Source: an uncultured Methanoregulaceae archaeon (GTDB taxonomy: Archaea; Halobacteriota; Methanomicrobia; Methanomicrobiales; Methanospirillaceae). Taken from it: a stretch of DNA of 64,000 nt. Made by a program: the position numbers and the translations under genes. The stretch is taken from positions 1,344,001-1,408,000 of the forward strand of contig OY970061.1 in assembly GCA_963705255.1 (NCBI GenBank). Reading direction: 5' to 3'. The notes beneath the pieces are model-generated. The model made no database searches and was not told the DNA's origin. It worked only from the letters and a program-made list of their open reading frames with translations. Shown in pieces: positions 13,516 to 44,999 of the stretch (positions are counted from its first letter, which is position 1; every line of letters begins with the position of its first letter).

Positions 13516-16343
<2,828 letters not shown>

Positions 16344-16347
16344 GGTG

Positions 16348-16673
16348 TTTCTCCTCATCGTAGTCCTGATGGACCAACCGGAAGTCGAAGGTTCGGCTTC
16401 GCCTCCCTCTTCTTACTTGTAGTTCGGACGAAACTTTTCGGGTTCGAAAAAGTGCTGCGCACTTCTTCTCATCCTCAAGATGCTGACATCTTTCTGAAAG
16501 TCGAAGATTACTTCGTAAATCTTCTCCTCATCGTGGTTCTGATGAACCACTCTGATTTCAAAGAACTGGTGCGCAGTCCTTCTCGTTGTCGAGGTCCCGA
16601 TGGACCTCCCGCAGTTCGAAGAAATGCATCGCATTTCTTCTCATCCTCGAGGCGCTCCGCGCCTCTTCGGAAA
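16348..16673 (-). repeat. Tandem array of about 5.5 twin-hairpin units, period 57-59 nt
   Basis: Units start at TCGAAR/TCAAAG at 16385, 16444, 16501, 16558, 16616; each is hairpin-8 nt linker (TCATCCTC-like)-hairpin. Confidence 0.85.
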
Positions 16674-16744
16674 AGCCATGACCCGGAGTCGAACCGGGAT
16701 CCGCTGATCTGCAGTCAGCCGCGTGGCCGTTCCGCCATCATGGC
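16674..16744 (-). tRNA. tRNA-Cys(GCA) copy 1
   Basis: GCCATGA/TCATGGC acceptor stem, anticodon loop CTGCAGA, GGTTCGACTCC, discriminator U. Confidence 0.95.
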
Positions 16745-16755
16745 ACCTTTGTCTG

Positions 16756-16799
16756 GATTCACGATTGTGAATCTGACTATACTAGATAACAATTGTGAA
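16756..16799. promoter_or_regulatory. Two palindromic operator-like sites (TTCACGATTGTGAA, ATAACAATTGTGAA) between TATA box and tRNA-Cys
   Basis: Sites at 16758-16771 and 16786-16799; minus-strand TATA-like TTATAAATA at about 16800-16808. Confidence 0.7.
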
Positions 16800-16990
16800 T
16801 ATTTATAAGTTCGGTCATCGGCAGAATTTTCCTGATCCTGTTCTCATGTCGTGAATTTTCTTTGGTTTCAGGTTCCAAGGTCTTCTCTGGGAATGATCAT
16901 CGGGAAAGGCAGGCCGGACGCGCCAACAAGCATGACAGGAGATGTGATGGGCAGAAAAATTAATGCAGAAAGACGGTGAGCAAAAACAAG

Positions 16991-17034
16991 GAGAGAATCA
17001 TCCTCTCCTCATCATGGTTCTGATGAACCGCTCG
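16991..17034 (-). repeat. Partial twin-hairpin unit directly 3' of tRNA-Cys copy 2
   Basis: TCCTCATC-ATGGTTC tgat GAACCGC-TCG. Confidence 0.7.
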
Positions 17035-17037
17035 TAG

Positions 17038-17108
17038 AGCCAACGCCCGGAATCGAACCGGGATACGCTGATCTGCAGTCAGCCGCGTAGCCTTTCCGCC
17101 ACATTGGC
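17038..17108 (-). tRNA. tRNA-Cys(GCA) copy 2
   Basis: GCCAATG/CGTTGGC acceptor stem, anticodon loop CTGCAGA, GGTTCGATTCC. Confidence 0.95.
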
Positions 17109-17225
17109 ACCTGTTCCGGCGATTGTTGTCGCCATACCATAGTAAGACGGGGGATATTTAGAGGCTGATCTGTGGGCGGGATTTGCCGCAAATCCGGGTT
17201 GGGGGGCTTTGCCCGTGAATGCCGG

Positions 17226-17312
17226 ATCAGGTCCAGATGAACCACTCTGGAAGCAGAAGGTTCGCCTTCGCCTCCCTTCTCATCCTCGAGGTGCTGCGCA
17301 CCTCATCGGAAA
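17226..17312 (-). repeat. About 1.5 twin-hairpin units
   Basis: ...GAAGGTTCGCCTTCGCCTCCCTTC-TCATCCTC-GAGGTGC tgc GCACCTC-ATCGGAAA; shares a block with 16379-16408. Confidence 0.75.
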
Positions 17313-17321
17313 CCGAAATAC

Positions 17322-17335
17322 TTAACAATTGTGAA
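17322..17335. promoter_or_regulatory. Operator-like palindrome TTAACAATTGTGAA
   Basis: Identical to 45590-45603; lies upstream of the wHTH regulator. Confidence 0.65.
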
Positions 17336-17348
17336 CTTCCATTCCATA

Positions 17349-17644
17349 ATGGTGATCCACTATGAGGGATCGTTTTTGTCGTAACCACCAATGAGAATAG
17401 CACCATACGAAGGATCGGGCACCTGCCGCCATCGGCAAAGCTCGTGTACAAAGTGCTTGAACACGGCGGCCAGCTGACCCAGAAGGATCTCATCCGCGAG
17501 ACCTCCCTGCCTTCCAGGACCGTGCGCTATGCATTGAACCGGCTGAAGGCAGAACAGATCCTTGTCGAGCGCTATTATTTCAGTGACGCCCGGCAGAGCC
17601 TGTACGGCCTGAACCCGCCACGCCAGGAGGTGGTTGCCGTATGA
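17349..17644 (+). CDS. Archaeal MarR-like winged-helix regulator (start uncertain)
   Basis: LPPSAKLVYKVL...LTQKDL..ETSLPSRTVRYALNRL...DARQSLY; homology extends upstream of the tracked GTG 17444, with a probable homopolymer slip at 17373-17377. Confidence 0.8.
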
Positions 17645-44680: not shown

Positions 44681-44999
44681 TCCCAAAACCTTCCGGCCCA
44701 ACTCAGTACCTCCCAAAAATAATTTTGCCTCAGGTCCGATCGCGCCAAAATTTTTTTTGGCGCAACTCAGTACGAGCCAGAAAAATATCTGGGACCCCCT
44801 CCCAAAAATGACCGTTCACGCCTAAACACCAGTTGTCTGACACGGCCCGGTCGCGCCAAAAAAATATTTGTCCCAACTCAGATCGGCCCAAAAAAATTTT
44901 TGGCGCAACTCAGTACGAGCCAAAAAAATATTTGCCTCGCACTGGATCGAGCCGGAAAAATATCCGGCGCGATCGGGACCGGGCCGGAAAATCTTCCGG
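44681..44999. repeat. Two blocks of exact 32-bp-period palindromic repeats
   Basis: 16-bp CCRRAAAAWWWTYYGG-like units at 44681, 44713, 44745, 44777 and 44856, 44888, 44920, 44952, 44984. Confidence 0.88.

Follow-up and report, generated by a model that had tools for sequence, protein, structure and literature searches.

Dispersed twin-hairpin repeats in a Methanoregulaceae archaeon and their cluster between tRNA-Cys and pscS

We analyzed a window of 64,000 nucleotides from an uncultured Methanoregulaceae archaeon (contig OY970061.1, positions 1,344,001 to 1,408,000 of the forward strand; the window is the whole stretch of DNA, and positions are counted from its first letter) with regard to a hairpin array on its minus strand. 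The array occupies the 330 non-coding nucleotides (16673-16344) between a tRNA-Cys gene and the ATG of pscS, the gene for SepCysS. We report that its units belong to a family of repeats that is dispersed over the genome. The array is probably a cluster of an undescribed archaeal family resembling the repetitive extragenic palindromes (REPs) and bacterial interspersed mosaic elements (BIMEs) of bacteria, and it appears to be carried passively in the spacer between tRNA-Cys and pscS. A first-pass annotation made from the sequence alone had offered two explanations, an unrecognised array of structured RNA or an archaeal REP/BIME-like element. The second one has gained from the data presented here, as the units are dispersed, intergenic, patchily distributed and absent from the spacer in most related loci; the HUH/Y1 transposase that would go with it was not found in the four high-copy genomes.

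The array (16344-16673) consists of four clear twin-hairpin units of 57-59 nt, one degenerate unit and one half unit (Table 1). The earlier count of about 5.5 units with this period is a fair description, and the four full units are statistically solid (E-values of 1e-9 to 1e-18 with filters off, 45-69 bits in a whole-genome search with the covariance model described below); the fifth unit, with 1.0 bit, is not significant. Judged by eye against subfamily members, the second hairpin of this fifth unit is like that of a GGGAGGC-type subfamily while its first hairpin has been replaced. A short stretch common to the fifth unit and the corresponding spacer of a relative (G002) was likewise found by eye and carries no tool score. 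All six stem pairs quoted in the first-pass annotation are present, and the stems differ with pairing retained. The predicted fold of a 351-nt stretch with the array has an energy of -133.3 kcal/mol compared to -98.9 +/- 5.3 kcal/mol for shuffled sequences (z = -6.5), and none of 100 shuffles was as good. An assembly artefact can be dismissed, since a contig from a second study spans 16386-16584 and shows a single difference; among the assembly contigs searched, none joins across array units.

The source genome (G000) comprises 2.60 Mb in a single contig. When the region was compared by BLAST with 41 related genomes, pieces of the array matched many places in the source genome and in a few congeners. 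An iterated nhmmer search started from one unit converged on 191 matches in the source genome, 108 of them near full length. The covariance model (R1), built from 79 aligned units (alignment A1) and describing two hairpins with 59 positions and 16 pairs, found at least 150 matches in the same genome. Nearly all nhmmer copies (188 out of 191) lie outside gene calls; these were made with a simple and conservative codon-usage caller and take up 66% of the genome, and all counts of location and orientation relative to genes in this report are therefore approximate. The units occur on both strands (83 plus, 108 minus) with no clear switch between them, and the GC skew is too weak to define replichores. 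Three further matches to the model were found in the window, at 1044, 36502 and 46609.

Neighboring units at most 120 nt apart are arranged head-to-tail in 33 cases, head-to-head in 13 and tail-to-tail in 9. In 17 of the 33 head-to-tail pairs a fixed gap of 10-12 nt separates the 47-nt cores, which leads to the period of 57-59 nt. Units in both orientations also take part, together with other conserved modules in varying order, in longer mosaic repeats of approximately 250-400 bp. Examples with 80-94% identity are located at C1:2209180-2209580, 233450-233700, 1026930-1027390 and 2244330-2244740 of the source genome, and among their modules are hairpins rich in G/C and, downstream of the unit, a conserved stretch.

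The consensus unit begins with a short pyrimidine-rich 5' flank, followed by GA, a 7-bp stem with an NTCA loop, the returning stem and again GA. A purine-rich linker with the core GGAGAAGAA leads to the second hairpin, the stem of which has a conserved base and a variable apex, and the unit terminates in TTCTTCGA. The GA...GA bracketing that had been noted for the array holds for the whole family, the flanking G or A being conserved in 63-95% of 97-99 aligned copies. Across the two arms of the first hairpin the brackets oppose each other as G.A in 52 and as A.G in 67 out of 91 distinct copies; for the second hairpin the corresponding values are 63 and 84 out of 94. The sequence is compatible with tandem sheared G.A pairs at these positions.

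The earlier proposal that structure is kept rather than sequence is confirmed by covariation far above that of shuffled alignments among 94 distinct copies. We used an alignment of 99 matches (A2; 94 distinct) that was guided by the model structure and hence favors this structure; here standard pairs make up 91.9% of the cells compared to 77.8% after shuffling, double-change cells number 184 compared to 45, and none of 500 shuffles reaches any of the five observed measures. As the copies are kin, these shuffle figures overstate independence, and so do the Wilcoxon figures. If the pairing partners are moved by 1-3 columns, 34-60% pairing is obtained. In an alignment made by MAFFT only, double changes occur in 8 of the 12 predicted pairs. 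GU or UG combinations are found 76 times, 39 of them at one position of one subfamily, compared to 23 of the AC or CA combinations that would be expected if the opposite strand were to fold. Such a kept structure holds equally for mobile repeats that are recognised as single-stranded DNA.

In the first hairpin, a 3-bp outer helix continues across the G.A pairs (columns 2-4 with 38-40), with 70% of the cells paired, 37 double-change cells and the variants UA/AU, CG/UA and UA/CG/GC. Because this helix abuts the G.A pairs symmetrically, the hairpin represents a helix with a symmetric tandem G.A loop and not a kink-turn (K-turn). The first-pass annotation had considered K-turns bound by archaeal L7Ae; this is not supported, as the covarying outer helix adjoins the G.A pairs and the 3-nt bulge is missing. 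The family resembles K-turn and C/D-box RNAs, the ligands of L7Ae, at the base of every stem, where tandem G.A/A.G pairs are conserved, and differs from them in that it has no 3-nt bulge, neither C nor D boxes are conserved and the linker varies. No snoRNA match in Rfam reaches threshold in the array region.

A further aspect is the asymmetry between the strands. Stability is predicted to be higher for the top strand than for its complement in 87 out of 99 distinct units if RNA parameters are used and in 93 out of 99 with DNA parameters, and on the other strand the G.A brackets become C.T/T.C mismatches. The top strand is the one that is predicted to fold. These data bear on an explanation of the units as DNA-level elements without a single-stranded stage, either as sites for chromatin or nucleoid proteins or as recombination hot spots. 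Archaeal histones proceed in steps of approximately 60 bp (tetramer) and 30 bp (dimer), and a 58-bp unit with two halves of approximately 29 bp comes near to this; the strict period of 57-59 bp in phased arrays, the intergenic location and the neutral orientation would agree with such an explanation as well. However, compensatory pairing changes within one strand and strand asymmetry are not expected for a duplex site, and only a folded single strand would give the G.A brackets a role, so that we regard this alternative as very unlikely.

The state of the locus in relatives indicates how the array came to its place. BLAST yielded 19 related loci, 14 of which hold both tRNA-Cys and the start of pscS, and in an alignment to these 14 loci the start codon of pscS is conserved. 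In 11 of the 14, one of which comes from a different family of the order, the spacer between tRNA-Cys and the ATG has a length of 10-16 nt, contains no units and carries a Shine-Dalgarno sequence of the GGAGG or GGTG type. The spacer measures 47 nt of unrelated sequence without a unit in G010, 77 nt with one unit (30.4 bits) in G022 and 134 nt with a partial unit in G002. At 12 of the 14 loci no unit was found anywhere in approximately 3 kb. The short spacer in 11 of 14 relatives is the reason to regard the array as an insertion.

With an ancestral spacer as short as this, pscS would hardly have had a promoter of its own, and co-transcription of tRNA-Cys and pscS is likely to be ancestral. Links between tRNACys and SepCysS genes are mentioned in the excerpt of Mukai et al. 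2017 (PMC5424206) used here. The gap of 10-16 nt in itself points to a co-transcript of tRNA and mRNA, and the mRNA would be left with a very short leader once the 3' end of the tRNA has been processed. Inspection of the array by eye revealed no TATA-like stretch, and an A/T-rich box upstream of tRNA-Cys copy 1 (Table 1) is the presumed promoter of a transcript of tRNA-Cys, array and pscS. The 3' arm of the second hairpin of unit 4 holds a run of five T on the transcribed strand (16447-16451), which might act as a weak archaeal terminator. The last linker of the array had been credited with supplying the Shine-Dalgarno sequence of pscS. The motif GAGGAG is indeed present 7 nt before the ATG and likely serves as such; an equally tenable view is that it represents the ancestral Shine-Dalgarno region, to which the unit linker is similar if the spacers of related loci are compared.

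From the position of the array one might assume a regulatory leader specific to pscS, which either senses tRNA-Cys or cysteine in the manner of a T-box or controls the translation of SepCysS by a K-turn that binds L7Ae. The array lies on the transcribed strand between tRNA-Cys and pscS with its last linker abutting the Shine-Dalgarno sequence, tandem G.A pairs are conserved, and by eye UGC or GCA triplets can be seen in 3 of the 4 second-hairpin apexes. The triplets are located inside stems, however, and are not a feature of the family. The array is missing in 11 of the 14 related loci and thus, unlike a T-box-like leader, not conserved upstream of pscS; the same units occur approximately 150-190 times beside unrelated genes, and the consensus has no 3-nt bulge by the G.A pairs. 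Rfam 15 returned only the two tRNAs at E <= 10 for 15800-17400 and no match at E <= 0.01 for 24 kb of unit-rich loci, so that no Rfam family, be it C/D-box, K-turn-containing or T-box, corresponds to the array. The comparative data have largely refuted the regulatory leader, which we consider to have hardly any likelihood. The broader first-pass suggestion of a locus-specific structured RNA, serving in processing, as L7Ae scaffold or in the control of cysteine synthesis, fares no better: the array is not conserved at the locus, and its units stand beside unrelated genes in either orientation.

The units of the array are 58-65% identical to each other, compared to a median of 59% for the family, and they belong to different subtypes. 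For unit 3, identity reaches 83% with a copy elsewhere in the genome compared to 58% with its best match within the array. Since identity within the array equals the family median, the array is not the product of recent tandem duplication in place. Because of the low identity between units, Tandem Repeats Finder did not report the array when applied to the window. A minisatellite that arose by local duplication and diverged while its hairpins were kept would account for the head-to-tail arrangement and the constant period. Such an origin is contradicted already by array members that are no more alike than random family members, by the closer relative of unit 3 elsewhere, by the absence of the array from relatives and by the lack of a signal from Tandem Repeats Finder, and we give it practically no credence.

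A hint towards the way in which units come and go arises from a segmental duplication of 2.2 kb in the source genome (C1:2057880-2060041 and 2467529-2469746). Over the approximately 250 nt that were compared, the two copies are identical except for a few differences in the last ten or so aligned positions and one indel of 56 nt. This indel has the length of one unit but a shifted phase, and it is flanked by a 13-nt repeat of the linker, itself a part of the unit. This is an argument that units can be gained or lost and hairpins recombined by way of the conserved linker.

To describe the distribution of the family we scanned 41 relatives with the covariance model, 16 of which belong to five other families of the order. 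At least 133 matches each were obtained in the source genome and in G019, compared to 59 in G002 and 31 in G022. The other 20 congeners contain 0-3 matches each, and 0-1 weak matches were found in the 16 genomes of the other five families. Within the whole family Methanoregulaceae, 24 out of 141 genomes had a match at E <= 1e-5, with the best 39 candidates per genome scored. These 24 are made up of 10 out of 23 genomes of the own genus, 10 out of 11 of a second genus and single genomes in three more genera. In one intergenic region elsewhere, two species carry elements in opposite orientation. A covariance model and a genome scan had been proposed as a check of the first-pass annotation, and both speak for a family, with strong covariation and a large number of matches in the genome of origin.

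In these respects the family behaves as would be expected of REP/BIME-type repeat DNA that is selfish or at any rate not essential. A number of observations weigh against our preferred reading of the array as passively carried repeat DNA, and they are gathered here together with the alternative that they suggest, beside the two reservations about the covariation figures given above. This alternative regards the units as RNA hairpin modules domesticated by the host and, like bacterial REPs, tolerant of orientation. They would stabilise 3' or 5' transcript ends against exonucleases, insulate the parts of co-transcripts (a tRNA from an mRNA or from 5S rRNA) or cause RNA polymerase to pause; at the present locus they would buffer the pscS mRNA after RNase Z has freed tRNA-Cys. 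The 188 intergenic copies are found between convergent genes in 64 cases, between divergent genes in 28 and between co-directional genes in 96, compared to shares in intergenic length of 27%, 23% and 50%, respectively. Within 150 nt of gene ends, 63 units are close to 3' ends (34 sense, 29 antisense) and 32 close to 5' ends (12 sense, 20 antisense). The enrichment between convergent genes and near 3' ends agrees with host modules, and so do the conserved G.A brackets and NTCA loop and the fold specific to the top strand.

The tRNA-Cys genes provide the best hint at a host function in transcripts. In general, tRNAs have a unit within 300 nt in 7 out of 47 cases compared to 3.2 +/- 1.7 for random intergenic points; this is a modest excess, and it originates mostly from three tRNA-Cys genes. 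All three tRNA-Cys genes have a sense unit abutting their 3' end, which could point to a role in the processing of tRNAs or transcripts. At the third of them (C1:1622400-1622752 of the source genome; locus L040), the gene is followed by one full unit and then by what appears by eye to be a 5S rRNA gene, so that one unit stands between tRNA-Cys and rRNA.

Some positions are, furthermore, common to species with few copies. Copies orthologous to those of the source genome were found in three of them: in G006 the copy follows the same gene, in G010 it precedes the same paralogous gene, and in G018 it comes after tRNA-Cys copy 2. We conclude from these that the family is old, with bursts in some lineages; such long persistence would also fit a host function. 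In the orthologous comparisons no clean pair of empty and filled sites with a target duplication was obtained, because orthologous intergenic regions are too diverged.

Against the host modules stands the lack of a preference for sense or antisense with respect to neighboring genes in spite of the strand-specific fold, units between co-directional genes being distributed as 48 sense and 48 antisense; these orientation statistics rest on our own crude gene caller. Most congeners, moreover, have 0-3 copies, and in the orthologous copy of G006 the first hairpin has decayed. A fold that is strand-specific and at the same time pays no regard to host transcription fits an element that is recognised as single-stranded DNA or transcribed by itself, and fits less well with a cis-acting signal in mRNA. 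We therefore think that domestication by the host, as an account of the family, is rather unlikely.

The search for a mobilising enzyme gave no candidate, which is a further point to be set against the preferred reading. The first-pass annotation had proposed to look for a linked HUH/Y1 transposase. No match to PF01797 was found in the four high-copy genomes (G000, G019, G002 and G022), while controls matched; four congeners do have PF01797 matches, and these carry only 1-3 units. The absence from the four high-copy genomes speaks against membership in the REP system with its REP-associated tyrosine transposases (RAYTs). Y2_Tnp (PF04986) gave no match either, but here the control genomes were silent too. 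Neither a multi-copy nor a parent insertion sequence (IS) is present in the source genome, where all repeats of more than 500 bp are paralogous cellular genes and DDE_Tnp_1 is represented by only two fragments with no units nearby. Two to three TnpB-like loci have no match to the covariance model within 1.5 kb. The second hairpin was also sought in viral contigs by a degenerate 26-nt motif, and this gave no exact match.

A solitary reverse transcriptase in the source genome (open reading frame (ORF) of 528 aa, RVT_1 39.6 bits, C1:315961-317547, L071:742-2328 on the minus strand) has a unit approximately 630 nt upstream. RVT_1 was not found in G019, G002, G022 and G020, and the enzyme was dropped as a mobiliser since it is missing from the other high-copy genomes. 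A 152-aa ORF approximately 1.4 kb from a unit has a sub-threshold match to GIY-YIG (21.1 compared to 22.6 bits). It adjoins an RNase III-domain protein of 235 aa beside a cluster of units (C1:2431885-2433080; L078). The RNase III-domain gene was dropped as well, its closer homologues being found in genomes with 0-1 units; the two genes may represent a defence or toxin-antitoxin pair. Among genes flanked by units, which were inspected in analogy to REPtrons, only a histidine kinase, an amino-acid kinase and a nucleotidyltransferase came up, and none was retained.

For the comparison with known systems we turn to the REPs, REPINs and BIMEs of enterobacteria and Pseudomonas (Di Nocera et al. 2013, PMC3733652; Bertels and Rainey 2011, PMC3116915). 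As far as the excerpts of these papers used here go, the hairpin family is like them in that its hairpin repeats are short, intergenic and present in tens to hundreds of copies, with a structure kept across variable stems, conserved unpaired or mismatched letters at the foot of the stem and clusters of mixed types. Further common features are an accumulation near 3' ends and between convergent genes and a copy number that varies widely among related species. Like REPs, the repeats are palindromic, present in many copies and mainly intergenic (191 matches, 188 outside gene calls), and as in BIMEs, several repeat types and other motifs are combined into mosaics that share modules in differing order. 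The family differs in its archaeal host and in its twin hairpin of approximately 58 nt with a conserved purine linker instead of a single palindrome of 20-40 nt. In contrast to REPs and REPINs mobilised by RAYTs, it possesses no GTAG or CGTC end tag but GA on both sides of each stem, phased head-to-tail pairs dominate (33 compared to 13 head-to-head and 9 tail-to-tail) rather than inverted dimers, and there is no RAYT/Y1 transposase in the high-copy genomes.

In the excerpt of Di Nocera et al. 2013 (PMC3733652), tagged REPs are reported for eight phyla, those named being bacterial, and head-to-tail dimers are absent or rare. The CGTC-tagged REPs described there have no dedicated transposase, loops of 4-5 nt, heterogeneous stems and head-to-head dimers. 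Our family shares with them the lack of an associated transposase gene, the loops of 4-5 nt and the heterogeneous stems. Unlike these REPs, it carries CGTC/CATC-like letters in the loop rather than as a terminal unpaired tag, has no CCA tail, has stems that do not start with A-T pairs, and is not arranged in head-to-head dimers for the most part.

Miniature inverted-repeat transposable elements (MITEs) and palindrome elements derived from IS200/IS605 (PATEs) occur in archaea and bacteria as small, non-coding, structured and dispersed elements with lineage-specific bursts, and the hairpin family is like them in each of these properties. With regard to MITEs, no terminal inverted repeats could be defined, the one clean pair of a filled and an empty site is that of the unit-sized indel in the 2.2-kb duplication, orthologous sites are too diverged to compare for a target duplication, and a parent IS is missing in the source genome. 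Unlike derivatives of IS200/IS605, it occurs in high copy number in genomes without TnpA (Y1), and the TnpB loci are without units. As these classes are defined, the family does not appear to belong to REP/RAYT, MITEs, IS200/IS605 derivatives or K-turns. Sites like the attC of integrons share with it the priority of structure over sequence, the strand specificity and the head-to-tail arrays; they were set aside only because the units are contiguous without cassettes.

Ssn nucleases provide another comparison: in the excerpt of Chenal et al. 2025 (PMC11893778), a dedicated chromosomal nuclease recognises hundreds of NTS/SRM hairpin repeats as single strands, and recognition of this kind would fit the top-strand-specific fold of the present family. 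Among the GIY-YIG genes here, only a gene of the size of UvrC is general, being present in all genomes, and the source genome has the one sub-threshold candidate of 152 aa. Small GIY-YIG genes do not track copy number; they are present in G014 and G016, which have few units, and none was found in G002 or G022. A published description of the hairpin family was not found in the literature searched, supplementary files lying outside the search, nor did that literature yield an archaeal equivalent of REP-type repeats and their partner enzymes.

On this basis we propose the following for the family as passively carried REP/BIME-like DNA. The units fill intergenic space in either orientation and form phased head-to-tail arrays, and they have expanded to more than 100 copies in a few species while being nearly absent in congeners. 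The hairpins may be kept because a machinery for copying or insertion, other than Y1/HUH, recognises the single-stranded top strand, and the family might accordingly be mobile by way of single-stranded DNA. Recombination or slippage at the conserved linker would then lengthen the arrays and reshuffle them. At the present locus, units entered a spacer that ancestrally measured only 10-16 nt from tRNA-Cys to the start of pscS, and the array is most likely carried along passively in the co-transcript as a structured leader of approximately 330 nt, the last half unit abutting the Shine-Dalgarno sequence. Its effect on pscS would then be neutral or merely modulatory.

One may speculate further that the GA-bracketed twin hairpins are recognition modules of a non-HUH machinery acting on single-stranded nucleic acid, and thereby an archaeal counterpart of REPIN-RAYT or SRM-Ssn with a new partner protein. 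Some copies, namely those at the three tRNA-Cys genes and in the pscS leader, could have been adopted by the host to separate or protect the parts of tRNA-mRNA and tRNA-rRNA co-transcripts. On balance we hold this extension to be improbable.

The features of the locus are compiled in Table 1. An O-acetylhomoserine sulfhydrylase-like gene follows pscS. An open frame of 549 aa (15159-16808, plus strand) runs antisense through pscS, the array and tRNA-Cys and is treated as chance. The same applies to an ORF of 73 aa inside the array (16413-16634, minus strand) without a match in NCBIfam, since it lies in repeat DNA that is found in both orientations. Elsewhere in the window, at 44851-44963, Tandem Repeats Finder reported 3.5 copies of a 32-nt repeat (score 106-109) that is unrelated to the hairpin family.

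Table 1. Genes, hairpin units and sequence signals around the tRNA-Cys/pscS spacer (window positions; bit scores of units refer to covariance model R1).
Feature	Position	Strand	Evidence and remarks
pscS (SepCysS), ORF of 454 aa, ATG at 16343	14979..16343	-	TIGR02539, 391.5 bits compared to a cut-off of 365.25
Half unit (first hairpin and purine linker)	16344..16383	-	Alignment to R1, model positions 1-35; end 5 nt before the pscS ATG
Unit 5, degenerate	16384..16440 (model match 16384-16437)	-	1.0 bit, E 2.7; not significant alone
Unit 4, full, short first hairpin	16441..16498 (or 16497)	-	45.8 bits genome-wide; 35.6 bits with filters off
Unit 3, full twin hairpin	16498..16556	-	68.9 bits; best family match
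Unit 2, full twin hairpin	16555..16614	-	46.4 bits genome-wide; 37.9 bits over 16557-16608 with filters off
Unit 1, full twin hairpin	16613..16671	-	45.3 bits, E 2.6e-12
tRNA-Cys (GCA) copy 1	16674..16744	-	ARAGORN; Rfam tRNA 56.9 bits; 3' end abuts the array
TATA-like A/T-rich box upstream of tRNA-Cys copy 1	16799..16808 (about)	-	By eye
Truncated unit right after tRNA-Cys copy 2, then T5 run	16983..17037	-	26.7 bits; orthologous to a full unit in G018 (L048 alignment)
tRNA-Cys (GCA) copy 2	17037..17108	-	ARAGORN; upstream of copy 1
Unit upstream of tRNA-Cys copy 2	17251..17310	-	29.3 bits; no counterpart there in G018

Bacterial REP-type repeats have been studied thoroughly together with their partner enzymes, and an archaeal family of this kind raises the question of what copies more than 100 units without a Y1 transposase. 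The patchy distribution offers a handle on this by phyletic profiling across Methanoregulaceae. For annotation the family is a warning that such arrays are not to be read as riboregulators specific to the locus at which they are found. The tight unit of tRNA-Cys and pscS tolerates a structured insertion of 330 nt, and it may in this respect be regarded as a natural experiment on the tRNA-mRNA co-transcripts of methanogens.

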